The position numbers were made by a program, and so were the translations under genes. A model generated the notes under the pieces. That model had not been told where the DNA came from, ran no database searches, and saw nothing but the letters and a program-made list of their open reading frames with translations. 64,000 nucleotides of DNA from an uncultured Candidatus Saccharibacteria bacterium (GTDB lineage: Bacteria > Patescibacteriota > Minisyncoccia > UBA6257 > 2-01-FULL-56-20): assembly GCA_964505005.1 (NCBI GenBank), contig CAZDFQ010000002.1, forward strand, positions 92,310-156,309, read 5' to 3'. Each line of letters starts with the position of its first letter. Position 1 is the stretch's first letter. Below are positions 3,303-58,447 of the stretch, piece by piece.

Positions 3303-3498
3303 TTTTCGCACCATTTGCGGGAAAGGGGTTCCGCCAGAGGCGGACAGGCGGGAAAACGGGAGTTTCCCCGTGGCGGAAGTCTTGAAACCGCTGGGTTTCA
3401 AAGAGCGCGAGCGAGTCCACCCAGTTGAGCGAGCGCGAGCAGATGGTGTCACGCACACTATTCACAAGGAGACGAAAATCAGCGGCAAATAGTTTTTT

Positions 3499-6815: not shown

Positions 6816-7100
6816 TTCAATTTAATTTTTTGACAAATATTCTGCAATTTGTATAATCTTTTCATACTTTTCGGCTATTGATGCAAAGATATGCATAACT
6901 TAATTCGGATGGGCGCATTTGTAGTGCGCTATTTGGATGCATAGAAAGGTCGAAAGAAATTCAGCATCACTTGTACATTTGGCAGCGAGGCAACGCAAAA
7001 ATAACCAAACTTTTGTGATTGCCGAGCGAACCAAATGATGGAACGAAGTTCCATGATTTTTGTGGTGAGTTTGGACCACTAGAGTGAGCTTAGAGAATAA

Positions 7101-7397: not shown

Positions 7398-7458
7398 TTT
7401 TTAATTCGGATGGGCGCATTTGTAGTGCGCTATCCGGATGCCAATAATTGCCAATGCA

Positions 7459-9259: not shown

Positions 9260-9354
9260 TATTCGCATGAGCGCATTCGCATTTTCCGCCAGAGGCGGAC
9301 CCGCCTCTGGCGGGCGCGTCACCTCTAAGGCGCGAGCGAGCGCTTTTCGCATGC

Positions 9355-9865: not shown

Positions 9866-10213
9866 TTACTGAGTAGCAAATTTATTATATAGCCAGCCGA
9901 AGACCCAGCCGAGGATAAATCCGAGAATCAGATTTTCGATAACAACTATCACCAGCCCTGTCCAGGAATAACTGAAAAACGGGTGAAAGCCGCCGAGCGT
10001 AGAAATCGTAAGGTAACCGATGCCAGTCAGAAGCGAAAACCCCATCGCCAGTAGCCAGGAGCCGGCGGCCACAATCGCTGCCGTATAGCCCAGCGCCTTA
10101 GGATTGAATTGCATATAGTTTTCATTTTTTGCGACCTTTCTGCTTTGAATATTTAAAAAACTCAATCTACTTCCTGTTTCAGTCGTTTCTCGGCTTCTTC
10201 TTTGGTATCGCAT
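9866..10213 (-). CDS. Hypothetical membrane protein (3 TM). The true start may be the internal Met near 10114.
   Basis: MQFNPKALGYTAAIVAAGSWLLAMGFSLLTGIGYLTISTLGGFHPFFSYSWTGLVIVVIENLILGFILGWVFGWLY. Confidence 0.4.
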   Translation of the reverse strand: MRYQRRSRETTETGSRLSFLNIQSRKVAKNENYMQFNPKALGYTAAIVAAGSWLLAMGFSLLTGIGYLTISTLGGFHPFFSYSWTGLVIVVIENLILGFILGWVFGWLYNKFATQ

Positions 10214-10397
10214 CTTCCGAAAACCCGGCCGGTGGTTTCCGGAAGAATCACATACTTATCTTTGATTTTTTAATCATAACATTCCTGCAGGCTGGCAGAT
10301 AGACAAGGCGCCTGCCAATGTGAAGTCCGCCACGAATTCGTTATGCCTAAGTCGGCTGTTATGCTATAGCACAACACTCGGTTGTTTATTGCGCCCC

Positions 10398-11489: not shown

Positions 11490-12833
11490 ATGGTTCTCAG
11501 TAAAAGAAAAAATTTAGACAAAAAAGCTCGTGTATTCGTGGCAATGTCCGGCGGCGTGGATTCGTCGGTCGCGGCTTGGCTGTTGCAAAAGCAGGGTTAT
11601 GATGTTATCGGCGTTTTTATGAAATGTGTCGGCCCCTCGACGGGGTTCGGGGTAGACTGTGCCGAGAGCGATGCCGAGGATGCCCGCCGGGTTGCTGAAA
11701 AATTAAGTATTCCTTTTTATGTTTGGGATTTTGAAGAGGAATACAAGCGCCGGGTGATGGATTATATGATTGACGGCTACCGGCAAGGGCTGACGCCGAA
11801 TCCGGATGTGATGTGTAACCGCGAAATTAAATTTGGGCTTTTTTTGGAGAGAGCGCTCGAAATGGGGGCGGATTATGTGGCAACAGGGCACTATGTGCGG
11901 AAACTTTGTTTTGCGAGAACCGGCGTCGCTCCGACTCCGGCGGTCGGAGCGCGCCTGCATCTCGGTTCTGCGGCTCGCTTACGGCGAGACCAAGCCCGCA
12001 GAACCTCCGATAGCTTCTCGCAAAACAAAGTTTCCTTTGGATTGGGTATTGCAAGGGATTTGAATAAGGACCAATCCTACTTCCTCTGGACTCTGAATCA
12101 GGAGCAGTTGAAGCCCTGCCTTTTTCCAATTGGCGATTATCTTAAATCCGAAGTTCGGGAAATCGCCCGTCAAGCCGGTTTGCCGACCGCCGACAAAAAG
12201 GATTCCCAGGGTATTTGTTTTTTGGGTAAGGTAACGCTTGATGAGTTTCTGAAGCAATATATTCCGGCGCGGCGCGGGGCGGTTTTAACGACTACCGGCC
12301 AGGAAATCGGCGAACATCAGGGTGCCCAGTTTTATACAATCGGACAAAGGCATATTTCGATCGCGAATCGCCAAGGGCAAATCGCCAATAGTCAGCCGCT
12401 CTATGTTGCCGAAAAAGATGTTGCAGCTAATATGCTGGTAGTCGCCGAAGGCGAGGACAATCCGATGCTCTATAAAGAGGAAGTTGAATTAAAGGATGTC
12501 AATTTTATCAGCCCAGAACATTCTAACATTCTGCAGAATGTTAGAATGTCAGTATCGGCTCGAGTTCGTTATCGCCAACCGTTGGTACCGGCAATCCTCT
12601 ATAAGCTAAAAGCTAAAAGCTATAAACTCGTTTTTGACCAGCCGGTCAAATTCGTGGCCCCGGGTCAGTCCGCGGTGTTTTACAAAAAGGGACAAGGGAC
12701 AAGGGACCCCGCACCAAAGCCCCGAAGGAGAACAAGTTCCCTACGGGGCAGGCAAGCTTGGTACGGGGCAGGCAAGAGAGAGGGAGAGTTCGAGCTGCTG
12801 GGCGGCGGAATAATAAAAACTGTTATGCTATAG
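11490..12833 (+). CDS. mnmA: tRNA-specific 2-thiouridylase MnmA, enlarged by two in-frame repeat insertions
   Basis: VFVAMSGGVDSSVAAWLL (PP-loop), ATGHYVR, NKDQSYFLW, KKDSQGICFLG and ELLGGGII. About 447 aa from the ATG at 11490, versus about 360 aa for the canonical protein. Upstream hairpin gggcgttgccgc-agta-gcggcaacgccc plus a U-run at 11384-11420. Confidence 0.85.
   Translation: MVLSKRKNLDKKARVFVAMSGGVDSSVAAWLLQKQGYDVIGVFMKCVGPSTGFGVDCAESDAEDARRVAEKLSIPFYVWDFEEEYKRRVMDYMIDGYRQGLTPNPDVMCNREIKFGLFLERALEMGADYVATGHYVRKLCFARTGVAPTPAVGARLHLGSAARLRRDQARRTSDSFSQNKVSFGLGIARDLNKDQSYFLWTLNQEQLKPCLFPIGDYLKSEVREIARQAGLPTADKKDSQGICFLGKVTLDEFLKQYIPARRGAVLTTTGQEIGEHQGAQFYTIGQRHISIANRQGQIANSQPLYVAEKDVAANMLVVAEGEDNPMLYKEEVELKDVNFISPEHSNILQNVRMSVSARVRYRQPLVPAILYKLKAKSYKLVFDQPVKFVAPGQSAVFYKKGQGTRDPAPKPRRRTSSLRGRQAWYGAGKREGEFELLGGGIIKTVML
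11899..12035. repeat. 137-bp palindromic element with perfect 21-bp terminal inverted repeats, inserted in-frame in mnmA
   Basis: Left IR ggaaactttgttttgcgagaa (11899-11919) is the exact reverse complement of the right IR ttctcgcaaaacaaagtttcc (12015-12035). The interior carries nested palindromes such as cgctccgac...gtcggagcg. It encodes a ~45-aa extra block between ATGHYVRK and GLGIARDLNKDQSYFL. Confidence 0.7.
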
Positions 12834-15396: not shown

Positions 15397-15513
15397 TTTA
15401 GAAAACTCCTTATCTGCTGAATATTATTGATAGTTGTTGCCTTTTCGTGCAGCGCGCAGGTGGCAGCCAGCCCAAGGCTGGTCGGCCTCGGGCCGAAGCG
15501 GTCAATCTTTTTC

Positions 15514-15765
15514 ATGTATTTTGTTTACATCTTGAAAAGCAATAGGAGCGGTAAGCTTTACAAAGGCTCAACTTCAGATTTAAGACGTCGCCTCAAAGAG
15601 CATAATAACAGAGAAGAATATTCTACAAAAAGTGGCATCCCATGGAAATTGGTCTATTATGAATGTTTTTTGAATAAATCAGACGCGCTTCGAGAAGAGA
15701 AATTTCTTAAATCCGGGAAGGGTAGAGAACGAATTAAATTTTTGTTAAAATATACTTTGAAATAA
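15514..15765 (+). CDS. GIY-YIG nuclease-domain protein (YhbQ/UPF0213-like), ending 3 nt before tRNA-Tyr
   Basis: MYFVYILKSNRSGKLYKGSTSDLRRRLKEHNN (GIY...YIG motifs). Start placed at the ATG 15514 by homology. Confidence 0.7.
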   Translation: MYFVYILKSNRSGKLYKGSTSDLRRRLKEHNNREEYSTKSGIPWKLVYYECFLNKSDALREEKFLKSGKGRERIKFLLKYTLK

Positions 15766-19701: not shown

Positions 19702-19932
19702 GAGATGTGAACGTTGCTCATGTTTTCCCGCCAGCAGTTTGTCCGAAAATACGCTATCAATTTCCCCGGCGAGGAATTTGCGTTCGCTTCCCGCCCGCCT
19801 GAGTTGCTCTCCCTGCCCGCCCCGCGTTGCGGAGCAAGGCAGGCGGGAGGCAAGTCGGGCGCGGTCGGCCCGCGCGAGGGTTTTCTTAACAAGCCGTTGG
19901 CGACCGAGATAAAATCTATTAGGACTTCAAAA

Positions 19933-26642: not shown

Positions 26643-26757
26643 AATCTTAAATCCAAAGCTTAAATGTCAAATCAAATCCAAAATCCCAATGACAAAAAAT
26701 TTGGATTTTGGGCTTGAGGCTTGATTTGAAATTTGGATTTTGATATTCGGATTTTCA
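26643..26757. repeat. AT-rich nested-palindrome MITE-like element (aaatccaaa / tttggattt family), copy 1
   Basis: About 85% identical to 34322-34435. Internal dyads ccaaaatcccaa...tttggattttggg. Confidence 0.6.
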
Positions 26758-28180: not shown

Positions 28181-28297
28181 GAATCTCTAATTTCTAAATC
28201 CTAATTTCTAAACAATTTCAAATATCAAAATTCAAAATGGTTTGAGATTTGATATTTGGATTTGTTTAGGATTTAGAGATTAGGATTTAGGATTTTT
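28181..28297. repeat. AT-rich nested palindrome (taggattt/aaatccta family): outer arms aatctctaatttctaaatcctaatttctaaacaa / ttgtttaggatttagagattaggatttaggatt and an inner dyad caaatatcaaa/tttgatatttg
   Basis: Reverse complementarity of the arms seen directly. Related shorter copies at 32095-32160, 32525-32610 and 43715-43745. Confidence 0.55.
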
Positions 28298-30293: not shown

Positions 30294-30686
30294 ATGACAA
30301 AACATAAACTTATTTATTCTGAACTCACCTATAAAATCAACGGTATTCTATTTCGCGTTGCCAAAAAATTAGGCAGATATAGAAACGAAAAACAATATGG
30401 CGATGCAATAGAAGAAAGTCTCAAAGAAGAAAGAATCAGCTATGAGCGAGAAAAGTTTTTACCCGAGTCTTTTGCCGGCGAAGTTAAACATAGAAATAAA
30501 GTAGATTTTCTTATAGAAGACAGGGTTATCTTGGAAGTGAAAGCCAAACCGTTTATTACCAAAAGTGATTATTATCAGACAATGAGATACTTAAAATCTT
30601 TGAATAAAAAACTGGCAATCCTGGTTAATATGCGGCGCTATGTTATAGCACCTAAACGCATATTAAATAAGGATGCTAATGAGTGA
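30294..30686 (+). CDS. GxxExxY family protein
   Basis: YKINGILFRVAKKLGRYRNEKQYGDAIEESLKE...VDFLIEDRVILEVKAK; the GxxExxY-type (TIGR04256-like) architecture. Confidence 0.65.
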   Translation: MTKHKLIYSELTYKINGILFRVAKKLGRYRNEKQYGDAIEESLKEERISYEREKFLPESFAGEVKHRNKVDFLIEDRVILEVKAKPFITKSDYYQTMRYLKSLNKKLAILVNMRRYVIAPKRILNKDANE

Positions 30687-32160: not shown

Positions 32161-32523
32161 ATGGCCGAAATTCAAAATTCTAAACAATACGACTTAGAAA
32201 AACGGACCTTAGAATTTGCAAGAAATGTAAGATTGTTTATTAAAAAATTACCGCGGACGTTATCAAATACAAAAGACACAAAACAAGCCATCAGGTCATC
32301 CGGTTCCATCGGCGCAAATTATATTGAAGCCAACGAATCTTTAAGCAAAAAAGATTTCTCTATGAGAATTAAGATTTGTCGTAAAGAGGCAAAAGAGACA
32401 GAATACTGGTTGCAGCTTTTGGATACCGGAGGAGAAGTCGGATTAGAAAACGAAAAGGAGAATCTTATAAAAGAGGCTATTGAACTAAGAAAGATTTTCG
32501 GCTCTATCTTGAAAAAATCATAA
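32161..32523 (+). CDS. Four-helix-bundle protein (23S rRNA intervening-sequence protein family)
   Basis: LEFARNVRLFIKKLP...SIGANYIEANESLSKKDF...EYWLQLL matches TIGR02436. It is flanked by AT-rich inverted repeats. Confidence 0.75.
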   Translation: MAEIQNSKQYDLEKRTLEFARNVRLFIKKLPRTLSNTKDTKQAIRSSGSIGANYIEANESLSKKDFSMRIKICRKEAKETEYWLQLLDTGGEVGLENEKENLIKEAIELRKIFGSILKKS

Positions 32524-35649: not shown

Positions 35650-35698
35650 GACCTATAGGGCCATAAGTCCTATAGGTCCTATAAGTCCTATATGTTTA

Positions 35699-36166
35699 AT
35701 GTTTAATAAAGGCACAACTTTAGTCGAGCTTATCATCGTCGTTGCCTTAATCAGCATTCTCGCGGTTTTCTCTTTTTTTACTCTTCTGCAGAGAAAAGGT
35801 CAGAATGATTTTGATAATGCGGGCCAGAGTATGGCGGCAATGCTTCGCGAAGCGAGAAGCCGCTCGGTCAGCCAAAGCTCGAGCACCAGCTGGGGCGTCC
35901 ATTTCGAAAATAGTACAACCACAACTCCTTTCTACGCTCTTTTCCCCGGAAGCTATGCGACCGCCACTATCATCGGTTATTATCGTCTGCCGACAACCGT
36001 CGGCTATGTTACTTCAAGCCTTGCTTCAGGCGCCTCTAAAGAAATAACTTTTTCTCAGATAACCGGCTTGGCCTCTCAATCAACCTCGATTGCCATTTAC
36101 AGCTTAAGCAATTCGGCAAATTCTTCGACTATCAATGTGGCTTCTTCAGGCGCCGTCAGCTACTAA
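35699..36166 (+). CDS. Pilin-like protein with prepilin N-terminal cleavage/methylation domain
   Basis: MFNKG|TTLVELIIVVALISILAVF, with E at +5. Confidence 0.7.
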   Translation: MFNKGTTLVELIIVVALISILAVFSFFTLLQRKGQNDFDNAGQSMAAMLREARSRSVSQSSSTSWGVHFENSTTTTPFYALFPGSYATATIIGYYRLPTTVGYVTSSLASGASKEITFSQITGLASQSTSIAIYSLSNSANSSTINVASSGAVSY

Positions 36167-36336
36167 CCGAAGAATCTAGAATCTAGAATTTAGAAAATAT
36201 GAAACTTCGTTTCATCAATTGGTTCGCTCGGCGAAAATAAATGTATAATTCATTTACTTTCTCCTCGCTGCCAATTGTAGAATCTAGAATTTGAAAATTG
36301 GTAAAATATGTAAGACGGTAGCAGTGGCGATAAAAA

Positions 36337-36984
<648 letters not shown>

Positions 36985-37118
36985 ATGATTCGTATTTAAA
37001 GACCACATAATCCGAATATACGAATGCACCCGAATAACCCGAATTATAATCGCTTTATTCGGAACATTCGGATATATTCGGGTATTCGGATTATGCGATA
37101 CATCCTAATTTAACATAA

Positions 37119-40277: not shown

Positions 40278-40970
40278 TTAGGATTGTTTGGGTTGCTTAT
40301 AAAATTTCTTCCCAATCTCTTCAAACGCCTGAGCAAGAGTCTTTTTATCCCGACTGTTGATTTTTTTAAGCACAAATTCGCCCGCTTTCATTCTGAAAGC
40401 CGCTGATTCACGCAGATTTTTACGCTGATTTATGCTGATATTATCCGCGTTTATCTGCGTTTCTAATCCGCGTTTATCGGCGTTCCGGCGGATACCTATC
40501 CGCAGTCGCCAGAAATTTTTCGTTTTAAGTTTCCGAATGACCGATTCTACTCCTTGATGTCCTGCCGAGCTCCGGCCGAAGGAAATCTTATATTTGCCTA
40601 ATTCGATATCTGAGTCGTCATGAACTATTAAAACTTCTTGCGGCTGGAGGTGATATTTTTTTAAAGTTTTGTCAACAAAATTTCCCGATTCATTCATATG
40701 GGTTCCGGCTTTTAGCAGTTTAAATTTATGAAATTTCGTTTCCTCAATTAGTTCGCCCCGCCCGCCTGAGTTGCTCAGGCAAGTCGGGCGGGTCGTCGAA
40801 AACAAACTGGTGTTTGCTTTCTTCTCGCTGCCGATTGGAAAATTTAAGAGAGGATTTTTACTTAGATAATCGACAGCCAAAAACCCAACATTATGGTAGG
40901 TGCCTTCGTACCTTTTTCCAGGATTGCCCAGGCCAATGATGATTTTAATTTTAGAAAGCTCCTTAAACAT
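40278..40970 (-). CDS. pth: Peptidyl-tRNA hydrolase, carrying an in-frame repeat-element insertion
   Basis: IIIGLGNPGKRYEGTYHNVGFLAVDYL...KFKLLKAGTHMNESGNFV...LIVHDDSDIELGKYKISFGRSSAGHQGVESVI. 230 aa versus about 190 aa for the canonical protein. Confidence 0.8.
   Translation of the reverse strand: MFKELSKIKIIIGLGNPGKRYEGTYHNVGFLAVDYLSKNPLLNFPIGSEKKANTSLFSTTRPTCLSNSGGRGELIEETKFHKFKLLKAGTHMNESGNFVDKTLKKYHLQPQEVLIVHDDSDIELGKYKISFGRSSAGHQGVESVIRKLKTKNFWRLRIGIRRNADKRGLETQINADNISINQRKNLRESAAFRMKAGEFVLKKINSRDKKTLAQAFEEIGKKFYKQPKQS
40745..40840. repeat. Copy of the cccgcccgcctgagttgctcaggcaagtcgggcggg-core element, inserted in-frame in pth
   Basis: About 85% identical over ~95 bp to the intergenic copy at 50613-50730, including the ...tttgctttcttctcgctgccgattgg right arm. 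Confidence 0.7.
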
Positions 40971-41189
40971 GATGTCAATCTGCGGATGAAATGCGAATTA
41001 GGCGAATCAGGAGGCTAAGTGAACATAATTTACATTCGCAGTATTCGCACAAAGATTCGCATCATTCGCATTATGTCAAGCGGCTCGACCGATGCGAATG
41101 ACCCGAATTATACACGAATGACACGAATAGATTAAAAATGTGATACAGCCCTTGAATTCTCTATTTCTATACTATACAATACCCCATTA

Positions 41190-41738
41190 ATGAAGCAATT
41201 CTTAGCGTCGTTTCTTGAAGTTGTTGAGATAGTCATTGTTGCCTTTGGGGCAGTTTTTTTAATCCGGAGTTTTCTTGTTCAGCCGTTTTTAGTGAGCGGT
41301 TCGAGTATGGTCCCCAACTTTTCAAATGGCGACTATCTTTTGGTGGATGAAGTTACCTATCGTTTTCGGCCGCCCGAACGGGGCGAGGTGGTTGTTTTTC
41401 GCTACCCCAAAGATGACTCGGTTTATTTCATTAAAAGAATAATCGGACTTCCCGGCGAGCGAGTCCAAATTAAAGACGGTCAATTGATTGTCTTCAATAA
41501 GGAGTATCCTTCAGGACTAAGATTAAATGAAAAATATCTTCCGCTCGGCCTGACAACAGCAGGAAATCTAATCTTTCAGGTTCCGGAAAATGATTATTTT
41601 GTTTTGGGGGATAATCGGTCTTACAGTCTTGATTCGAGAACTTGGGGGATGTTGCCAGTCAATGATATTGTCGGCTTGGTCCAGTTGCGACTGTGGCCCC
41701 CGACTTCTTTCAAGGTTTTTGCGGCGCCGCCATATTAA
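41190..41738 (+). CDS. lepB: Signal peptidase I (S26)
   Basis: VSGSSMVPNF (catalytic Ser box), FIKRIIGLPGERV (Lys box) and GDNRSYSLDSRTWG. Confidence 0.85.
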   Translation: MKQFLASFLEVVEIVIVAFGAVFLIRSFLVQPFLVSGSSMVPNFSNGDYLLVDEVTYRFRPPERGEVVVFRYPKDDSVYFIKRIIGLPGERVQIKDGQLIVFNKEYPSGLRLNEKYLPLGLTTAGNLIFQVPENDYFVLGDNRSYSLDSRTWGMLPVNDIVGLVQLRLWPPTSFKVFAAPPY

Positions 41739-41781
41739 TAATAAGTCCTATTAGTCCTATAAGTCCTATTGGTCCTATATT

Positions 41782-43110
41782 ATGAGAATAAAGAAAACAA
41801 GCGAGAAAAAAAATAAAAAAAATGTAGAAGTTATTTTGCGGGCGCCGCGAGGTATGCACGATGTACTGCCGGCTGAAATGGGTTGGTGGGATAAAATTTG
41901 GAAAGCCGTCGATAAACTGGCTGATTTTTATAATTTTCAACAAATTGAGACCCCGATTTTAGAATATGCCGCCCTGTTCCAAAGGGGCGTCGGCGAGGAA
42001 ACCGACCTGGTTGCTAAAGAAATGTATTATGTAAAAACAAAAGGCGAAGATGCTTTAGTGCTTCGACCGGAGGGCACGGCGCCAATGGCCCGAGCTTATC
42101 TTGAACACCACCTCGGCCGAACCTCTTCTCTTCAGAAATTGTTCTATAAAGGGCCGATGTTCCGTCACGAACGTCCCCAAGCCGGCCGTTTCCGCCAGAG
42201 CACCCAGGCCGGTTTTGAGATAATCGGCGGCCCCAATGATTCAATCTACGATGCCCAGATTATTTTGGTATTCGAACGACTATTAGAAGAACTCAAAATT
42301 AAAAATCCGGTTCTTAAAATAAATTCCATCGGTTGCCGGGTCTGCCGGCCGCTGTACAAACGCCAGCTCCAGAGTTATTACAAGGACAAAGAAAAGAAGC
42401 TTTGTCTTGATTGTCAGCGCCGGCTTAAAACCAATCCGCTGCGACTTCTCGATTGCAAAAACGAATCCTGCCAGCCGTTTAAAAGCAGCGCGCCCAATCT
42501 TCTTGATAAACTCTGCACGGCTTGCAACTCTCATTTCAAAAGCGTTCTCGAATATCTTGAGGAATTGAATTTGCCGTATCTGGTGGATAACACTCTGGTT
42601 CGCGGCCTTGATTATTACAATCGGACGGTTTTCGAATTTTTCGTTGAGGGTTCGGGTTCGGAAGTCGGCGCTTTGGCCGGCGGCGGCCGGTATGATTACC
42701 TTGTCGAGATGCTCGGCGGCCGGCTGACGCCGGCGGTCGGCGGCGCTGTGGGCATCGAGCGTCTAATTGCGGTTATGAAAGCCCGGGGGATTGAAGCGTC
42801 GAAACAACCAGCCAAAAAAGTTTTCATCATCCATGTCGGAGAGCTGGCTAAGAAAAAATCGTTGAATCTTTTGGAAGCTTTGCGGAACGCCGGAATTTCG
42901 GCCAGCGAAGCCCTGAGCCGCGATTCGCTCAAAACCCAGTTACGGCTGGCTGACCGCGAAGGCGTCAAGATCGCTTTGATTTTCGGCCAAAAGGAAATTT
43001 TTGAAAATAGCATTATCATTCGAGATTTTGAAACCCACTTGCAGGAAACGGTGCCAATGGATAAAATCGTCGAGGAAGTAAAAGTCCGGCTGAAGAATAA
43101 AAAAGATTAG
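41782..43110 (+). CDS. hisS: Histidyl-tRNA synthetase
   Basis: LRAPRGMHDVLP, class II motifs (...LRPEGTAPMARAY..., FRHERPQAGRFRQSTQAGFEIIG, GGGRYD) and a C-terminal anticodon-binding domain. Confidence 0.9.
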   Translation: MRIKKTSEKKNKKNVEVILRAPRGMHDVLPAEMGWWDKIWKAVDKLADFYNFQQIETPILEYAALFQRGVGEETDLVAKEMYYVKTKGEDALVLRPEGTAPMARAYLEHHLGRTSSLQKLFYKGPMFRHERPQAGRFRQSTQAGFEIIGGPNDSIYDAQIILVFERLLEELKIKNPVLKINSIGCRVCRPLYKRQLQSYYKDKEKKLCLDCQRRLKTNPLRLLDCKNESCQPFKSSAPNLLDKLCTACNSHFKSVLEYLEELNLPYLVDNTLVRGLDYYNRTVFEFFVEGSGSEVGALAGGGRYDYLVEMLGGRLTPAVGGAVGIERLIAVMKARGIEASKQPAKKVFIIHVGELAKKKSLNLLEALRNAGISASEALSRDSLKTQLRLADREGVKIALIFGQKEIFENSIIIRDFETHLQETVPMDKIVEEVKVRLKNKKD

Positions 43111-43289
43111 AAATAGCCCCCTAAATCAATTTATATTCGCAGCATTCGCATCTATTCGCCCGCCCGCCTGAGTTGCTCAGGCAAGTCGGGCAGGTAGATT
43201 CGCATTATATTCAAGCCGCTTGACATAATGCGAATGATGCGAATCATATGCGAATGTCGCGAAAAACCGGATTATGATAGATTAAAATT

Positions 43290-46417: not shown

Positions 46418-47635
46418 ATGAAGATGAAAAGGGTCCATCCGAGAATCAAAAAGGAGAAAACGAGCAATGCTTCGATAAACATCAAGGTTGTCGGCATTGG
46501 CGGCGGTGGCGGCAATGCGGTATCCCGAATGAGCAGGAATTTCATCCGCGGCGTGGAATTCATCGCCATTAACACCGACCATCAGGATTTGGACCACACC
46601 TCGGTCCGCCGGAAAATTTACATCGGCCGAAATCTGACCAGGGGCCTGGGCACGGGCATGAACCCCGAGCTCGGCCGCCAGGCCGCTGAAGAGAACCGGA
46701 GTGAAATCGCCGAGACCCTGAAAGGCGCGGATTTGATTTTTATCGCCGCGGGCCTGGGCGGCGGCACCGGCAGTGGGGCCGCGCCAGTGGTCGCGGAGAT
46801 CGCCAAACAATCCGGCGCCCTGACCCTGGCTTTCGTGACCAGACCATTTGCTTTCGAAGGCGTGCAGCGCGAGCGCATTGCTCAGGAAGGCATTGTCAAG
46901 CTCCGCGACAAAGTGGACGCTTTAGTTGTCGTGCCCAATGACCGAATCTTCAGCATTATCTCCAAAGACACGCCGCTTCTGAAGGCCTTTGAAGCCATCG
47001 ACGATGTTCTGCGGAACGCGCTTCAGGGCATTGTCGAGCTGATTGTGGTGCCGGGCATTATCAATCTCGATTTCGCCGATGTGAAATCGATTATGGAAGG
47101 CACCGGCGCGGCGATTGTGGGCTTGGGCGTGGCGGCCGGACCGGAGCGGGCCGTGGAAGCGGTGCGCCAGGCGATAAATTCGCCGCTTCTCGAAATCAGC
47201 GCCGAAGGCGCCAAGGGCATTTTGCTCGGCGTGGCCGGCGGCCGGGACTTGAAAATGAATGAAGTTAACGAAGCAGCGCGGCTGGTGGCCCAGGCCGCGG
47301 ACCCGGCAGCGAGAATCATTTTCGGCGCCTACCGCGACCGGAACATCAGGCCGAACCAGCTGAAAATAATTCTCATTGCCACCGGTCTCAACGGCCTGAC
47401 GCACGCCAATTCTCTTTTCGGGACTTTTCAGGCCAAGCGGGAAAATTTGCTCAAAGAGGAAAAAGAGCCACCGTCGAGGTTAGACGAATCGCCGATTGCC
47501 GGCTCCAAAGAAAAAATTTCTCCCTTAGCTGCTGATAAAACTGCTTACCCCGAATCAAAAAAGAAACCTCCTAAAGCCGACAAGGACAGCGAAATCTGGG
47601 ACATTCCTACTTTCCTGCGTAAAAAGAGAAAGTAG
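46418..47635 (+). CDS. ftsZ: Cell division protein FtsZ. Start chosen at the ATG 46418; the track ORF begins at 46382, inside the promoter repeat.
   Basis: IKVVGIGGGGGNAVSRM...GGGTGSGAAPVVAEIAK (tubulin signature) and a C-terminal DIPTFLRKKR tail. Confidence 0.9.
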   Translation: MKMKRVHPRIKKEKTSNASINIKVVGIGGGGGNAVSRMSRNFIRGVEFIAINTDHQDLDHTSVRRKIYIGRNLTRGLGTGMNPELGRQAAEENRSEIAETLKGADLIFIAAGLGGGTGSGAAPVVAEIAKQSGALTLAFVTRPFAFEGVQRERIAQEGIVKLRDKVDALVVVPNDRIFSIISKDTPLLKAFEAIDDVLRNALQGIVELIVVPGIINLDFADVKSIMEGTGAAIVGLGVAAGPERAVEAVRQAINSPLLEISAEGAKGILLGVAGGRDLKMNEVNEAARLVAQAADPAARIIFGAYRDRNIRPNQLKIILIATGLNGLTHANSLFGTFQAKRENLLKEEKEPPSRLDESPIAGSKEKISPLAADKTAYPESKKKPPKADKDSEIWDIPTFLRKKRK

Positions 47636-47699
47636 GAATGTCCCAAGGGAAGGGGGTCGGTCAATCCACTCACCCCGACCCCCGGCTTAAGAAACCTCC

Positions 47700-49544: not shown

Positions 49545-50594
49545 TTATTCCTCGTTTTCCTGCGGCCGCTCCAGCGTTAGCGGCTCCGCGCCGATGGCTT
49601 CGCCGGTGATTTTCAAAATGTCCTTATCGATTTTGGAAAATTCTTTGTAGGCCGTGTTGTAGCTGGAAACGGTTTGACCGAGATTTTTGCCGACTTTGAG
49701 CAGAAAGTCGTCGAATTTCGAAAGATGGGTGGTCAGTTTTTCGATTTCTTTTTTTATCTCTTCGGTTGATTCCTGAATTTTGAACGCTCGCAAGGCCTGG
49801 AAAAGAACCTGTAGGTAAGCGGCAAAGGTCGTCGGCGAAACGATAATCACATGTTTTTCATTATAGGCGTAATCAACTAGGTCGCGGGTACTGGATTTGA
49901 CCGCGCCGACTTGATTGACGAGTAGGTCGTAATAAATCGCTTCCGAGGGAATGAACATAAAAGCGAGGTTCACGGTCCCTTCCTCGGGCTTGATGTATTT
50001 GGCGGTTTCGTCGATTCTTGATTTTAAGTCAGCCACGAATTGTTTTTCCAACCGCTCGCGGACTCCGGCATCTGCTTCGTTTATCAAGCGGTTGTAATTT
50101 TCCAAACTGAATTTGGAGTCAATCGGCACGATTTGGTTGCCGATGAAAATCACCGCATCCACCACCGTGCCGTCTTTGAAAGGATATTGCATTTGATAAC
50201 TCGATGGCGGGAGAACATTTCGGAGAATCGTTTCCAGATAATATTCGCCAAGTACACCTCGCTGTTTCGGGTTTTTCAGAATGTCCTGAAGCGTACGCAA
50301 CTGCTCGGTGATGTTCATTACCTGTTTCTGACCTTCGCCGACCTTAGTCAACTCCTGGGTAATTTCTTTGATGATTTTCGCACTCTCGCCGAATTGCTCG
50401 CGGAAAGCCCGGGTCGATTCGCCGAGTTTATTATCCATCGTGCGGGCCAATTCATTCAACTGGTTTTGAATGAGAAGAAGCGACTGGTCGGCCTCTTTTC
50501 TTCTGCTTTGGCTCTGGAGAATATAGAAAAGAATGCCGAAACCGGCCAAAAGTAAGAAAATTAGGATGAAAAGAAGCGTTGATTCCATATTCAT
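49545..50594 (-). CDS. rmuC: DNA recombination protein RmuC
   Basis: N-terminal TM and coiled coil, then RGVLGEYYLETIL...PIDSKFSLENY...FIPSEAIYYDL. Confidence 0.85.
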   Translation of the reverse strand: MNMESTLLFILIFLLLAGFGILFYILQSQSRRKEADQSLLLIQNQLNELARTMDNKLGESTRAFREQFGESAKIIKEITQELTKVGEGQKQVMNITEQLRTLQDILKNPKQRGVLGEYYLETILRNVLPPSSYQMQYPFKDGTVVDAVIFIGNQIVPIDSKFSLENYNRLINEADAGVRERLEKQFVADLKSRIDETAKYIKPEEGTVNLAFMFIPSEAIYYDLLVNQVGAVKSSTRDLVDYAYNEKHVIIVSPTTFAAYLQVLFQALRAFKIQESTEEIKKEIEKLTTHLSKFDDFLLKVGKNLGQTVSSYNTAYKEFSKIDKDILKITGEAIGAEPLTLERPQENEE

Positions 50595-50612
50595 TCGGAT
50601 GTGCCTATTCGT

Positions 50613-50730
50613 ATGAAGCTCCGCTTCATCAATCGGTTCGGCCCGCCCGCCTGAGTTGTTCAGGCAAGTCGGGCGGGTCGGCGAAAATAAATGCTTCGCA
50701 TTTACTTTCTCCTCGCTGCCGATTGTAAGG
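50613..50730. repeat. Full-length intergenic copy of the GC-core palindromic element (left arm atgaagctccgcttcat hairpin, core cccgcccgcctgagttgttcaggcaagtcgggcggg, right arm ...tttactttctcctcgctgccgattgtag)
   Basis: Related copies: 40745-40840 (in pth), 43160-43200 (core only), 19787-19870 (core with a nested insertion), 36199-36290 and 56233-56314 (arms without the core). Confidence 0.7.
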
Positions 50731-54778: not shown

Positions 54779-54936
54779 GGGCGCCTTACTTCAGAGCGAC
54801 ATTCGTCGAGTTCTCTCTTGGAGGCGCCTTTCCATCCCCATTGAAAGGGGATTTTTGTTGTTTCAAATCAAGTCAACTTAAAATAATTAATTCGGATGGG
54901 CGTATCCGTAGCGCGCTATTCGAATGCCAATCAATC

Positions 54937-55440
54937 ATGAAAAACAATATAATTATACTTATACTTGTCATCACGGCAGCCGTTGTCGGATTCATTCTCT
55001 GGAATGGAAAGTCGTCTAGACCGGCAGAAACCGTCAACCTTATAACCGGCCTTACTTCGGCTAATTTAAACGAAGCGATTCCGGTTTATGATTTCGGTTC
55101 GGTGTCAATGTTCAAAGGCAATGTCGAACACGACTTCGCCGTCAAAAACACGACCGACAGCGAGCTTCTCGTAACCGGCGCGGAAACATCCTGCATGTGC
55201 ACGCGGGCGGTCTTGAAACTGCCGGACGGTCGGGAGATGGGCCCCTTCGGGATGCCGGGCCACGGCTTCAATCCCTCGCTCAATGTTAACATCAAGCCAG
55301 GAGAGTCATTAGTAGTCAGAGCTATTTTCGACCCGGCGGCTCACGGCCCGGCCGGCGTCGGCTTAGTGGAACGGCAGATTCTTCTTTCGACTAACAAAGG
55401 TCAGCTCATGATGCAATTCCGCGCCCAAGTAACACCATGA
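54937..55440 (+). CDS. DUF1573 domain protein (membrane-anchored beta-sandwich with SCxCT motif)
   Basis: YDFGSVSMFKGNVEHDFAVKNTTDSELLVTGAETSCMCTRAVLKLPDG...IKPGESLVVRAIFD matches DUF1573 (FDFG...SCGCT...PGE). Start at the ATG 54937. Confidence 0.6.
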   Translation: MKNNIIILILVITAAVVGFILWNGKSSRPAETVNLITGLTSANLNEAIPVYDFGSVSMFKGNVEHDFAVKNTTDSELLVTGAETSCMCTRAVLKLPDGREMGPFGMPGHGFNPSLNVNIKPGESLVVRAIFDPAAHGPAGVGLVERQILLSTNKGQLMMQFRAQVTP

Positions 55441-56231
55441 CGAACAATCTATTTCGAAGCAAGCTTTTTTGGCTTGGCTTGGCAGTAGTCCTTTTAATCG
55501 GCGCCGGCTTGTTTTTGGGCTCAATGGCCAGCGCGCCGCTCCTCTATAAATTCTCCAATTCCGGTACCTGGTTTATACCGCTTTTAGTGGCCGCGGCGGT
55601 TACTGACAGCATTAACATCTGCGCTTTCTCGGTCTTGCTGCTGACCGTGGCTTTCCTCATCAGTCTCGGCCGAGTCCGGACCAGCATTATGAAAATCGGC
55701 TTCAGCTACATCGCCGGCATCTTCATTGTCTATCTGCTTATCGGCTTAGGCATTCTCCAGGCGCTTCACCTCTTCAACACCCCGCACTTTATGGCTAAAG
55801 TCGGCGCGACGCTTCTTATCGTTCTGGGAGCCATTAACATCATCAATGAATTTTTCCCGGCCTTTCCTCTAAAATTGCGCCTTCCCCAGGCGGCCCACGG
55901 CAAAATGGCCGAGCTCATGGAAAAAGGGTCAATGCCAACGGCCTTTCTTTTGGGAGGTCTGGTCGGTCTTTGCGAGTTTCCTTGCACCGGCGGTCCTTAT
56001 CTGATGGTCTTAGGGCTTCTTCACGATAAAGCCACCTACTTCAAGGGAGTTGCTTATCTCTTCCTTTATAATCTCATCTTCATTCTGCCGTTAGTGGCCA
56101 TCCTGATTCTGGCGAGCAACAAGGATTTGCTCGGCAAGGTGCAGGAATGGAGAAAGGTCGAAGCCAAAAATATGCGGTTCTGGATAGGCATCGCAATGAT
56201 TGTCTTGGGCCTGCTTATTTTTGCGCTGTGA
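55437..56231 (+). CDS. ccdA: Cytochrome c biogenesis protein CcdA-like (DsbD-family transmembrane thiol-disulfide transporter)
   Basis: DSINICAFSVLL and GLCEFPCTGGPYL (the two conserved Cys in TM segments); 6+ TM. Confidence 0.75.
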   Translation: MTNNLFRSKLFWLGLAVVLLIGAGLFLGSMASAPLLYKFSNSGTWFIPLLVAAAVTDSINICAFSVLLLTVAFLISLGRVRTSIMKIGFSYIAGIFIVYLLIGLGILQALHLFNTPHFMAKVGATLLIVLGAINIINEFFPAFPLKLRLPQAAHGKMAELMEKGSMPTAFLLGGLVGLCEFPCTGGPYLMVLGLLHDKATYFKGVAYLFLYNLIFILPLVAILILASNKDLLGKVQEWRKVEAKNMRFWIGIAMIVLGLLIFAL

Positions 56232-56423
56232 TATGAAGCTTCGCTTCATCATTTGGTTCACCCGGCAATCACAAGAATCTTTTTGTTCTTGAGTTGCCTC
56301 GTTGCCAAATGTAGAATTAAATATAATGCGAATGGCGCGAATTCTTATGCGAATGTTGCGAATATTTTAATAAACCCCTCTGCGGTTATTCGTATCATTC
56401 GCACACATTCGTAAATTGGCATT

Positions 56424-56945: not shown

Positions 56946-57034
56946 TAAAAAATCAAAAATCCCCGCCTGCGCCGACCCGCACTTCGCCGTTGACTTCAGC
57001 AGGGAGAGGGCTTCGGCGGGCAGGAAAAATCAAA

Positions 57035-57412
57035 ATGCAAAATTACAATTCAAAATTTAAAATTTTAATATTTTTAATTGTCATTTTAATCTTTGCATTT
57101 TTATTTTTGATTTGGCAGCGAGGTAGCGGCACGGCACCGCAGAATTTACTCGACTCTCTTGCTAAATGTCTGGCCTCGAAGGGTATAACAATGTACGGCG
57201 CCTATTGGTGCCCGCATTGCCAGAACGAGAAAGCAGCTTTCGGCAGTTCGTTCAGATATATTCCCTATGTGGAGTGCGCGGAAAATCCGCAAAAATGTCT
57301 GGAGGTCGGCATCAAGGGTTATCCAACCTGGATTTTCTCGGATGGCCGGCGCTTTGAAGGCGAGCAAGGGCTTCAGCGGCTGGCGCAGGAAAGCGGCTGC
57401 CCATTGCCGTAA
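57035..57412 (+). CDS. Membrane-anchored thioredoxin-fold protein (WCPHC active site)
   Basis: TM ILIFLIVILIFAFLFLIW, then MYGAYWCPHCQNEKAAFG (CxxC). Confidence 0.7.
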   Translation: MQNYNSKFKILIFLIVILIFAFLFLIWQRGSGTAPQNLLDSLAKCLASKGITMYGAYWCPHCQNEKAAFGSSFRYIPYVECAENPQKCLEVGIKGYPTWIFSDGRRFEGEQGLQRLAQESGCPLP

Positions 57413-57442: not shown

Positions 57443-58447
57443 TTGAGAATTATGGAAAACGATATTCAAAAACCTGAAGAAAAGAGAAAAAATGGCTTCT
57501 TGCTGCCGCTAAGCATTCTGCTTTCAACGTTTATCCTTGCCGGTGCCTGGATTTACACGACTGGTTTGAAAACAGCCAAAGTCGGGCAGCGGCCTTTGGC
57601 GGCGGCCAATGTCCAGCAATCTCTGCTGGAAGGGAAATTATTGCCTTCTCAAGGAATTGTTCTACCGGTTCGCTGGGGCGATTCGGGTGCGAAGCTCGTA
57701 AAAGCCGGCGTAATTGATGGTGGGAAATTCGAATCGCTCTACAATCGGCAGGGAGAAGAAAGCAAACGAAGTTTGTTTTCGGCGAGCGAACCGATTGATG
57801 AAGCGGAAGCTTCATACGCGAATCGTTCGGTTTCTCTCAATGAGCTCAGGCGATTGCTCTACGGAGAGGATAATGGCAATTTAAAAATTACCCGGGAAAA
57901 TTCCGGAATCATCGTCAATCTTCTGTGGGCTTTAGGTCTGGGTAACAAAAACGCGATTTTGGAGAGGGGGCCGATGGCTGACCCGCGTTATATTACTGCT
58001 AATTTCGCTTCCACCGGCGGCTGGACAATTGCCAAAGGCAGCGCGATGGAACATTACAGCAAACATGAGTTTGTTACTTTAACGCCAGAACAGCAGGCAT
58101 TGGTAGAAAGAGTCAGTCAAAATATCTATCGGCCGTGTTGCGACAATGCCACTTATTTTCCGGACTGCAACCACGGGATGGCCATGCTCGGCCTGCTCGA
58201 GCTGATGGCTTCGCAAGGCGTTTCCGAGGAGGAAATGTACCGGGCAGCGCTTAAAGTAAATTCGTTTTGGTTTCCGGATGTTTACCTGACGATTGCCAAA
58301 TATTTTGAGTCAAAGGGGATTGATTGGAGCCAGACGGATTCCAAAGAGGTCTTGAGCTATAATTTTTCGAGTGCCAGCGGCTACCAGCGGATTTTGAGCC
58401 AGGTCGCGCCGCCGGAAATCAATTCTAGCAGCGGTTGCGGCGTCTAA
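57443..58447 (+). CDS. Membrane-anchored Cys-rich extracytoplasmic protein of unknown family, paralog A (YRPCCDN...DCNHG...C-terminal GCGV)
   Basis: TM LLPLSILLSTFILAGAWIY. Homologous over about 250 aa to the C-terminal half of 60946-62436. Confidence 0.5.
   Translation: MRIMENDIQKPEEKRKNGFLLPLSILLSTFILAGAWIYTTGLKTAKVGQRPLAAANVQQSLLEGKLLPSQGIVLPVRWGDSGAKLVKAGVIDGGKFESLYNRQGEESKRSLFSASEPIDEAEASYANRSVSLNELRRLLYGEDNGNLKITRENSGIIVNLLWALGLGNKNAILERGPMADPRYITANFASTGGWTIAKGSAMEHYSKHEFVTLTPEQQALVERVSQNIYRPCCDNATYFPDCNHGMAMLGLLELMASQGVSEEEMYRAALKVNSFWFPDVYLTIAKYFESKGIDWSQTDSKEVLSYNFSSASGYQRILSQVAPPEINSSSGCGV

Follow-up and report, generated by a model that had tools for sequence, protein, structure and literature searches.

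Nested palindromic repeats lie in frame in the peptidyl-tRNA hydrolase gene and between genes of a Patescibacteria genome

Peptidyl-tRNA hydrolase (Pth) is normally essential, and the presence of a palindromic repeat within its reading frame raises the question of where the additional sequence comes from and how the protein accommodates it. A first-pass annotation of a 64,000-nucleotide stretch of a Patescibacteria genome, hereafter the window, described a single ~95-bp palindromic block at 40745, adding about 29 residues to a Pth some 40 residues longer than canonical. The palindromic block is indeed present and in frame, but it starts at 40727 and comprises two nested elements, a 36-nt GC hairpin (H) within a three-helix backbone (X). 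The host gene is as follows:

40278..40970, minus strand: pth (peptidyl-tRNA hydrolase), 230 aa, identified from its open reading frame and Pfam PF01195

The encoded protein belongs to Pth1, combining a PF01195 match (E 1.9e-40) with the family-invariant residues. All columns invariant among 64 Pth homologs are kept, including N16, H26, N93, and D119, which we take to be the equivalents of the E. coli catalytic residues, and PDB Pth chains match the protein down to E 2e-24. Residues 10-215 span profile positions 1-159 only, so that about 47 residues are surplus; the excess length first reported is therefore real, but it derives from two inserts, at aa 45-81 and aa 162-194. The first insert, encoding PIGSEKKANTSLFSTTRPTCLSNSGGRGELIEETKFH at about aa 45-81, measures 111 nt and is stop-free in the host frame, amounting to exactly 37 codons rather than ~29. 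It is absent from all 21 Pth homologs aligned from Patescibacteria, which share 51-63% identity with the window protein and many of which lack any residue at this site, where length is variable; the segment accordingly does not look ancestral. Both flanks are pth sequence, in frame and homolog-collinear, and taking out the 37 residues joins KNPLLNF directly to KFKLLKAG, collinear with homologs such as KNPLISNFQFPISKLLKSD. AlphaFold assigns the insert low confidence (pLDDT 43-54, against 88-97 for the core), with aa 77-80 predicted as a beta-strand paired with a native strand. Judging from the conserved residues and the predicted structure, the gene looks functional with the insert present. The second insert (aa 162-194) is a repeat of a different kind from X and H, with 83% third-codon-position identity in a comparison of two genomes; elsewhere in their pth genes these positions are saturated (33-37%).

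Copies of X were located with blastn-short and nhmmer. The 64 kb contain six copies of X (four intergenic, two coding) and four of H (three intact, one interrupted), listed here with the gene neighboring the second composite:

40727..40839, plus strand (the gene sense strand is the reverse complement): X+H composite in pth, from alignment and an intergenic-only HMM
40757..40792, plus strand: H nested in the pth X, an exact 36-mer of 12 codons (about RPTCLSNSGGRG), 35/36 identical to the other two intact copies
50612..50728, plus strand: X+H composite upstream of rmuC, RNA fold -56.6 kcal/mol, z -6.5, lying 18 nt upstream of the rmuC start codon
50642..50677, plus strand: H inside the X copy upstream of rmuC, where its internal position matches that in pth
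49545..50594, minus strand: rmuC, with an RmuC Pfam match
36198..36281, plus strand: X without H, between two pilin-like genes, nhmmer E 3.8e-24
57737..57816, minus strand: X without H, in frame in ORF 57443..58447, encoding about RQGEESKRSLFSASEPIDEAEASYAN, intergenic-only HMM E 5.2e-14
56232..56316, plus strand: diverged X of sub-family b, nhmmer E 6.7e-23, beginning directly after the stop codon of gene 55437..56231
6971..7055, minus strand: diverged X of sub-family b, between rpsP and a KH-domain gene, nhmmer E 3.6e-24
43159..43194, plus strand: solo H, 49 nt past the hisS stop codon, forming the center of an ATTCGCA-type inverted array
19790..19863, plus strand: H interrupted in its loop by another, related GC hairpin (about 19810-19847), both H arms present but split, between recO and a DUF11-type surface protein (likely true start 19933)

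The X backbone measures 77-83 nt and the composite 113-117 nt. X begins with a 7-bp terminal hairpin, followed by a 7-bp closing stem (CAATCGG/CCGATTG) around a second hairpin; its ends (TATGAAGC... and ...CCGATTGTAGA) are not mutually inverted, the inverted repeats being internal. In six of six copies the similarity stops abruptly, the left boundary lying at TATGAA and the right one at about TTGTAGA, and no adjoining pth sequence is carried along. The 36-mer H core, CCCGCCCGCCTGAGTTGCTCAGGCAAGTCGGGCGGG, is found at 40757-40792 (0 mismatches), 43159-43194 (1), and 50642-50677 (1), the intact copies being 34-35/36 identical, with none expected in 100 dinucleotide-preserving shuffles. This hairpin, not the whole block, is what pth has in common with the sites previously noted at 43160 and 19787. 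TTCG lies 0-3 nt before H at all four sites, and the two H-bearing backbones are 82% alike, each being nearer to H-less copies. Occurring alone, nested, and conserved across diverged backbones, H behaves as an element distinct from X.

The pth and rmuC-upstream blocks (~40727-40840 and 50612-50728) align over ~114 positions with 18 mismatches and one 3-nt gap, or ~84% identity, in agreement with the ~85% originally given for an element at 50613-50730. The DNA similarity between pth and the intergenic copies is significant even without the GC core, as an HMM built from the four intergenic X copies only recovers the pth X with the GC hairpin deleted, over its full length, at E 2.4e-12. Conversely, the Pth segment might be an ancestral or locally evolved loop, with the intergenic copies representing decayed fragments of pth. 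Such an origin would suit the predicted beta-strand pairing of aa 77-80, as well as the interval 50612-50726, which is open in the same frame as the pth copy and encodes a similar peptide; this copy has no in-frame ATG/GTG/TTG upstream and is therefore non-coding. However, none of the 21 aligned homologs has the segment, the copies end abruptly without pth flanks, H-less X and solo H copies exist, and the X backbone also lies inside two further unrelated proteins. An ancestral loop is thus largely refuted and highly improbable as an origin of the segment, and insertion of a repeat is the reading pursued below.

The first of these additional proteins is encoded within the window:

57443..58447, plus strand: the other host gene in the window, for a protein conserved in Patescibacteria, of unassigned function and CxxC-rich in its C-terminal half

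The ORF yields no Pfam match. In an alignment of 16 sequences, 25 columns are filled by the window protein alone and empty in the 15 homologs, and AlphaFold pLDDT is 52-59 in the insert against 83-93 in the flanks. Homolog alignments therefore identify both coding X copies of the window as insertions. The second protein, archease P0364, lies on another NCBI contig of the same genome and contains the X-encoded peptide TIGSEKKVNAKHLFSASEPIDETKFH, in the same frame as pth. Pth and archease maintain a common frame throughout, (P/T)IGSEKK(A/V)N..LFS..E(L/P)I(E/D)ETKFH, and the ORF 57443 insert has its C-terminal half in common with this peptide (LFSASEPIDEAE), whereas a loop indel puts its N-terminal half into a different frame. 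Across the 64 kb and one off-window protein, X is consequently in frame in three unrelated genes: pth, ORF 57443, and archease P0364. An example peptide from the element-encoded inserts is LFSTTRPTCLSNSGGR.

Assembly support bears on whether the pth insert could be a chimeric join at a repeat in a metagenome-assembled genome. Logan contigs do break at the elements, with two independent contigs beginning in the rmuC-upstream composite right after H (~50681) and one ending inside the solo H (43159..43194), although breaks at H copies are expected of a genuine repeat. The pth junctions come from a single NCBI assembly, which is the only source of the exact Pth protein; the Logan contig with lepB-hisS stops short of pth, and a contig index look-up recorded no exact Pth or PilM protein in independent contigs. 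Against a chimeric join, both flanks of the insert are homolog-collinear pth sequence in frame. The pth copy also differs from every other X copy (74-88% backbone identity) and is therefore not a collapsed or borrowed one, and two independent Logan assemblies recover the comparable ORF 57443 insert, encoding an identical protein. We regard an assembly artefact as exceedingly improbable, and the pth insertion as genuine.

A stable fold in the mRNA raises a further alternative, namely removal or bypass of the 111 nt, whether through an intron-like element, translational hopping over the hairpin, or post-translational excision. The pth segment folds at -43.6 kcal/mol (z -4.5) on the mRNA sense strand, and unusual introns are known from Patescibacteria rRNA and tRNA genes (PMC13011429). 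The uninterrupted 37-codon frame speaks against this, as do the recurrence of the same peptide frame in archease, the lack of any match to a group I or group II intron or ribozyme family, and a length too short for an intein. Removal or bypass thus retains a very slim chance, and translation of the insert as part of Pth is favored. The insert site itself is permissive, as unrelated palindromes occupy the same loop in other CPR Pth genes, namely in L008 (150 nt, -73 kcal/mol, z -7.6) and L013. The loop inserts of P0003 (L009) and P0016 (L014) show no palindrome (z about 0), so some length variants of the Pth loop are not elements.

The structure of X is conserved beyond its sequence. Element copies fold at -39.9 to -56.6 kcal/mol (z -2.9 to -6.5), and in the alignment of copies 91.8% of helix cells are paired, compared with 31-47% once the partners have been slid 1-3 columns. 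Both sides have changed in 8 of 25 base pairs, compared with 0-3 in the slid controls, and the covariation score is reached by none of 500 shuffles. Compensatory changes thus maintain each of the three X helices from copy to copy. No significant palindrome was detected in the C-terminal insert of mnmA (12687-12791; z -0.2 to -1.8).

Covariation of this strength is also compatible with a functional RNA. X or X+H could be a structured RNA, such as a leader regulating in cis, a module controlling mRNA stability, or a small RNA, perhaps with a link to GA-cis, and the coding copies would then be incidental or dual-use. The strong folds, the highest significance belonging to the rmuC-upstream copy, and the position of that copy in sense orientation just upstream of the rmuC start would fit such a role, and its minus strand aligns over the entire 88-nt model of Rfam GA-cis (RF02987), sharing an unpaired GAGGAG, a hairpin closed by the GCGAAGC loop, a second GC-rich hairpin, and CGCCGACC. 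H-less X, however, cannot match the second hairpin, and the scores of 22.8 bits (rmuC-upstream) and 13.9 bits (pth) lie below the 34.7-bit gathering threshold, which tRNAs alone pass across the whole window; membership in GA-cis was accordingly rejected. Moreover, the orientation of X relative to local transcription is mixed (4 vs 2 copies, read from the gene map), the neighboring genes are functionally unrelated, G-U evidence favors neither strand, three copies lie in frame within unrelated proteins, and stem decay is most advanced in the pth copy, which accounts for all four imperfect helix 1-2 cells of the alignment. A promoter scan around the rmuC-upstream copy returned nothing above shuffled expectation, and the main text of Weinberg 2017 contains no description of GA-cis. 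A functional RNA is improbable as the principal explanation, and a structured repeat that spreads remains the preferred one.

Searches of other genomes, metagenomes, and viral, phage, and plasmid records turned up no copy outside this genome. Across 185,579 representative genomes, exact-core scanning gave no further copies; a single match, inside Acidimicrobiales coding sequence and without the outer stem, was dismissed as chance, as were six JGI metagenome matches without the hairpin. Viral contigs gave zero H matches and, for the left hairpin of X, only a trivial 17-nt palindrome, while BLAST against phage and plasmid records gave no match. The 38 scanned window ORFs include no transposase or RAYT domain; positions 1-2400 encode DnaE. 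No consistent target-site duplication accompanies the X copies. Flanking direct repeats of 7 nt occur at spacing 118 (pth), 89 (ORF 57443), and 140 (rmuC-upstream copy), none occurs at the 56232 copy, and the 36198 copy, situated within a tandem array, has a 12-nt direct repeat at spacing 101. Since 118 and 89 are not multiples of three, these repeats fit poorly with clean in-frame events. No empty-site allele was seen, so the mobility of X and H is deduced from the distribution of copies alone. Among the papers covered, literature searches found none relevant to MITEs or palindromic elements in CPR or Patescibacteria coding sequences, and only unrelated primer matches for the CATTGCGAG motif.

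Taken together, X and H are probably lineage-specific, non-autonomous palindromic repeats, selfish or neutral, whose intragenic copies survive only in frame and in indel-tolerant loops. Under this explanation, both would have spread in this Patescibacteria genome by a process dependent on hairpin structure. X presumably entered pth at an edge loop that is missing from many CPR Pth proteins, and H may have entered the pth X copy afterwards, beside the TTCG motif; being 36 nt long, H never shifts the reading frame. The nesting of a hairpin in H, of H in X, and of X in genes, along with the fixed TTCG flank, points to a possible structure-directed insertion mechanism. Survival of an intragenic copy would require a length that is a multiple of three, no stop in the host frame, and a tolerant loop, and the insert would be translated as a floppy surface loop on an enzyme that still works.

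A broader reading is that repeat DNA of the intergenic type, comprising palindromic elements (such as X, H, the mnmA element, and the CATTGCGAG family) and helically phased 7-mer arrays, may repeatedly serve as a major supplier of the lineage-specific insertions found at a few hot-spot loops of Patescibacteria proteins, at least some inserts perhaps being under nucleotide-level selection as DNA or RNA signals in coding sequence. The hint of such selection comes from the third-position identity of the second Pth insert in otherwise saturated genes, and we offer this reading only tentatively, as rather unlikely. Beside it stands the observation that unrelated palindromes have invaded the Pth loop in other CPR lineages.

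The implications extend beyond this locus. For 25 years, "selfish DNA in proteins" inserted in frame has been regarded as a curiosity of Rickettsia, and the same behavior is now seen in a remote lineage with reduced genomes, which suggests that in-frame repeats are a general outcome of small genomes under weak purifying selection. The X/H host offers a second natural system in which to study how random peptide insertions are accommodated by proteins. For work on CPR genomes, the practical consequence is that short-read assemblies break at such repeats and protein lengths come out inflated, and the spurious "conserved" peptides derived from them can mislead homology clustering and annotation.

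Comparison with known repeats places X and H beside several systems. Like REP/BIME sequences (Di Nocera et al. 2013, PMC3733652), H is a GC-rich imperfect palindrome, its 36 nt falling within the 20-40 nt of REPs, multi-copy, mostly extragenic and sometimes in ORFs, with a fixed short motif on one side. The motif differs, however: the flank is TTCG, and none of the four copies has a conserved GTAG or CGTC, the tags by which the two REP super-families are defined; the 38 scanned window ORFs likewise yielded no RAYT gene. Bacterial MITEs (ERIC, Coxiella QMITE1, Anabaena MITEs, BOX; PMC10969869) are likewise small structured non-coding repeats that form in-frame ORF fusions. X differs from these in having neither terminal inverted repeats at its ends nor a fixed-length target-site duplication, and no related insertion sequence was identified among the 38 scanned ORFs.

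IS200/IS605-type elements and their miniature derivatives are hairpin-ended, with a hairpin lying sub-terminally at one end and no duplication of the target. X, with its sub-terminal hairpin, and H, beside a fixed tetranucleotide and nesting into hairpins, appear to recall them. The window has no TnpA or TnpB gene, and the resemblance is only suggestive.

The closest behavioral parallel is provided by the Rickettsia palindromic elements (RPEs; Ogata et al. 2000), palindromic repeats of ~100-150 bp found between genes and in frame in housekeeping genes, with 44 insertions reported in R. conorii (PMC10969869, PMC3733652). The first-pass annotation had limited such behavior to a few lineages, whereas in-frame palindromic repeats are known more widely, including REPs in several species, intragenic ERIC, Coxiella QMITE1, and Anabaena MITEs (PMC3733652, PMC10969869). 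Its proposal of RPE-like behavior itself holds, the likeness to published RPE descriptions being one of behavior and not of demonstrated descent from RPE families. X and H differ from RPEs in their host, which its nearest homologs place in the Patescibacteria (CPR), in their composite form, a 36-nt hairpin in a roughly 78-nt backbone with each also occurring solo, and in the three in-frame cases here against the 44 of R. conorii. In common with RPEs, they occupy intergenic DNA as well as the reading frames of unrelated genes, X+H at 113-117 nt has the size and stable hairpin fold of an RPE (X alone being shorter), and a recurrent frame yields a conserved peptide in Pth and archease and in the C-terminal half of the ORF 57443 insert. 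Their inserts, with low pLDDT between high-pLDDT flanks and, in Pth, at a site of variable length, may lie at the surface, where the protein seems tolerant, and their host has a small reduced genome; by behavior, X and H can thus be regarded as RPE-like.

The 230-aa peptidyl-tRNA hydrolase (Pth) is encoded by ORF 40278..40970 on the minus strand. Pfam PF01195 matches it with an E-value of 1.9e-40, and residues 10-215 cover just 159 profile positions, therefore leaving about 47 extra residues. The first-pass annotation had attributed additional Pth residues to a palindromic element resembling intergenic DNA, and local alignment confirms the resemblance, the pth block (~40727-40840) sharing ~84% identity, with one 3-nt gap, with ~50612-50728. 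The palindromic block does lie inside pth, with its left edge at 40727 rather than 40745, and the extra residues it encodes are present and number 37, at about aa 45-81. The 36-mer named as its core is exact at 40757-40792, while 43159-43194 and 50642-50677 each differ from it at one base, with 0 occurrences expected by chance (100 dinucleotide-preserving shuffles). The supposed copies at 43160 and 19787 have this hairpin in common with pth; the rest of the block is absent from them.

Short-word BLAST and nhmmer located further copies without the GC hairpin, and the block is therefore composite: a palindromic backbone repeat (X) in which a 36-nt GC-rich hairpin (H) is nested. The pth finding is real and its likening to Rickettsia palindromic elements (RPEs) essentially right, the single element being refined into two nested families that affect more genes. 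X is 77-83 nt long, invariably begins with TATGAAGCTTCGCTTCATCAAT and ends in ..CTCGCTGCCGATTGTAGA, and occurs six times in the window.

Copies of X in the window
6971-7055, minus strand, without H, between rpsP and a KH-domain gene
36198-36281, plus strand, without H, intergenic, flanked by pilin-like genes
40727-40839, plus strand, with H, within pth
50612-50728, plus strand, with H, 18 nt upstream of the rmuC ATG
56232-56316, plus strand, without H, immediately past a stop codon
57737-57816, minus strand, without H, within ORF 57443..58447

Within X, H occupies an identical internal site in pth and upstream of rmuC, a solo H lies downstream of hisS, and in the H near 19800 both 36-mer arms are kept (19790-19863), with another GC hairpin lying between them, nested in the loop. 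Trained on the four intergenic X backbones only, with coding copies left out, an HMM finds at full length the ORF 57443 copy (E 5.2e-14) and the pth copy with H deleted (E 2.4e-12); the similarity is therefore independent of the GC core. A separate family of 41-nt repeats (TTAATTCGGATGGGCGCATTTGTAGTGCGCTATTTGGATGC; copies 85-95% identical) occurs at 6900-6940, 7401-7441 and 54887-54927, the first two copies flanking both the KH-domain gene and X at 6971-7055.

None of 21 Patescibacteria Pth homologs (51-63% identical) carries the segment, and many have zero residues between '..DYLxKNP' and 'KLLKS..MNESG'. With aa 45-81 removed, KNPLLNF directly precedes KFKLLKAG, collinear with KNPLISNFQFPISKLLKSD of the homolog P0006, and L009, the nearest relative with conserved gene order (pilM-pth-lepB-hisS), has unrelated non-palindromic sequence at the insert site. 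In ORF 57443..58447, 25 columns (QGEESKRSLFSASEPIDEAEASYAN..) are filled by the window protein only, among 16 sequences. When 1.84 billion representative proteins were searched with an X+H peptide profile, the true matches were Pth and one further protein, an archease (P0364, PF01951); the four remaining matches were unrelated Cys-rich repeat proteins. This archease is encoded on a 222,204-nt NCBI contig. It places 170 matched residues on 136 PF01951 profile positions and contains TIGSEKKVNAKHLFSASEPIDETKFH, the translation of an H-less X whose frame matches that in Pth. X is therefore found in frame in three unrelated proteins. Its reading frame is identical throughout in Pth and archease, and ORF 57443 shares it only in the C-terminal half, a loop indel having put the N-terminal half in another frame.

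X folds into a terminal hairpin of 7 bp and then a closing stem, also of 7 bp, around a second hairpin, with H, where present, as third arm. Across the six-copy alignment, standard pairs fill 91.8% of cells, versus 31-47% with 3' partners slid 1-3 columns, and both-sided changes occur in 8/25 pairs versus 0-3 in these controls; the observed covariation score was reached by 0/500 shuffles. Variants include ATGAAAC/GTTTCAT, ATGAAGC/GCTTCAT and ATGGAAC/GTTCCAT in hairpin 1, and CAATTGG/CCAATTG, CAATCGG/CCGATTG and CATTTGG/CCAAATG in the closing stem. As read from the alignment, only the pth copy has imperfect cells in hairpin 1 and the closing stem, four in all, which fits decay or codon selection following its insertion. 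Counts of G-U pairs in the helices favour neither strand. The sole Rfam lead for X and H is a sub-threshold match to GA-cis (RF02987), full length on the minus strand at 50631-50716 (22.8 bits against a gathering score of 34.7 bits) and scoring 13.9 bits for the pth copy, likewise under threshold. Unpaired GAGGAG, GCGAAGC and CGCCGACC are common to GA-cis and 50631-50716, and a distant relationship between this RNA motif and the repeat family is possible.

Intact H copies, three in number, match one another at 34-35/36 positions. The two backbones that carry H are only 82% alike, each nearer to H-less copies (86-91%), and TTCG stands 0-3 nt before H at 4/4 sites. These comparisons are most simply explained by two independent entries of H, into distinct X copies at one shared preferred site; alternatively, H may have undergone gene conversion or be under the stronger constraint. 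Being 36 nt long, H cannot shift the reading frame, and four of its six frames are stop-free. The pth genes of the window and L009 are saturated at third codon positions (33-37% identity) and copies of X and H inside the genome are 74-97% identical, so the insertions are younger than the window/L009 split.

Every column invariant in 64 Pth homologs is kept, including N16, H26, N93 and D119, which we take to be the counterparts of E. coli catalytic residues. AlphaFold2 gives Pth a pLDDT of 88-97 in the core versus 43-54 over residues 41-70. Residues 77-80, the last that the element encodes, form a predicted strand paired with native strand 83-87. In ORF 57443, the insert scores 52-59 and its flanks 83-93. 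The models fit placement of both inserts in surface loops but do not prove function.

The ORF 57443 protein, insert included, is identical in two independent Logan assemblies (SRR5161805 and SRR5161795). The pth insert junctions come from one assembly only, yet pth reads in frame on either side and no other copy has the same sequence. Two Logan contigs (L010 and L011) start at ~50681 inside the rmuC-upstream X+H, just past H, and a third (L012) ends (~43188) inside the solo H downstream of hisS, as expected for a genuine repeat; the breaks show that the repeat limits short-read assembly of the source genome.

Representative genomes and JGI metagenomes scanned for the exact core, and viral contigs scanned for exact patterns, yielded no further copy, and BLAST of the element found none among phage and plasmid records; within the limits of these searches, the family appears lineage-specific. 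The 38 ORFs scanned in the window contain no transposase domain and no consistent target-site duplication surrounds the X copies, so we can only infer the mechanism of spread. Positions 1-2400 encode DnaE. Small stand-alone ORFs at 15427-15765, 30294-30686 and 32161-32523 encode a GIY-YIG nuclease, a PD-(D/E)XK protein (PDDEXK_3) and a 23S-rRNA-intervening-sequence protein.

Other inserts accompany this family. In mnmA (~11520..12833, plus strand), a different in-frame palindrome at 11902-12032 (-87.3 kcal/mol, z -8.2), single-copy in the window, has an 18-bp perfect terminal inverted repeat (AACTTTGTTTTGCGAGAA / TTCTCGCAAAACAAAGTT) closing two GC hairpins. Its ~40 extra residues are absent from many MnmA homologs and E. 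coli MnmA and near-verbatim in a Liptonbacteria protein (P0242). Pth holds a second insert at aa 162-194 (40389-40487, RNADKRGLETQINADNISINQRKNLRESAAFRM), common to homologs P0002 and P0003 and older than X+H, with 11-nt-phased 7-mers (CGCNGAT x3, then ATCNGCG x4) in an inverted array (DNA fold z -4.0). Within this insert, 30/36 third codon positions (83%) agree with the L009 ortholog, versus 33-37% elsewhere in pth, which implies nucleotide-level constraint or recent exchange. In other Patescibacteria, the same Pth loop carries unrelated CATTGCGAG...CTCGCAATG-type palindromes, at 10103-10252 of locus L008 (150 nt, -73 kcal/mol, z -7.6) and about 10095-10183 of L013. The motif has more copies at the 3' end of pth and in other parts of such loci, and encodes recurrent 'HCEERSDEAI / SLRGAKRGSNP / IASEAKQS' peptides. 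The mnmA palindrome, the second Pth insert and these Pth palindromes together suggest that repeat-derived insertions are common in Patescibacteria.

The mnmA C-terminal region (12687-12791) has a further ~35-aa insert with tandem TACGGGGCAGGCAAG x2 and no significant palindrome (z -0.2 to -1.8); its ACGGGGCAGGCAAG motif (peptide YGAGK) recurs in a Pth insert from an unrelated MAG (P0016, L014). Many intergenic spacers, including 26649-26740, 28187-28290, 35654-35700, 37006-37095, 40990-41072, 41732-41787, 57025-57108 and others, hold inverted arrays of short motifs (ATTCGCA/TGCGAAT, ATTCGGA, TAGGATT, CTACTTT, AGTCCTAT) at ~9-11 nt spacing, making long imperfect palindromes. An isolated GC-rich palindrome follows efp (9285-9325, TCCGCCAGAGGCGGACCCGCCTCTGGCGGGCG; 17-nt partial copy at 3329-3345), and a perfect 18-bp inverted repeat follows ftsZ (47597-47645).

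Tests for the defining MITE features of terminal inverted repeats and target duplication, and for the GTAG or CGTC tag of REPs, were negative. The limited literature corpus searched contained no Patescibacteria report of palindromic elements in coding sequence. REPs and MITEs inside ORFs have been reported in several other bacteria (PMC10969869, PMC3733652), a looser likeness in behaviour; the match to RPEs likewise rests on behaviour, not descent. X and H are best read as RPE/REP-like selfish palindromes in coding sequence, a known behaviour in a new lineage.
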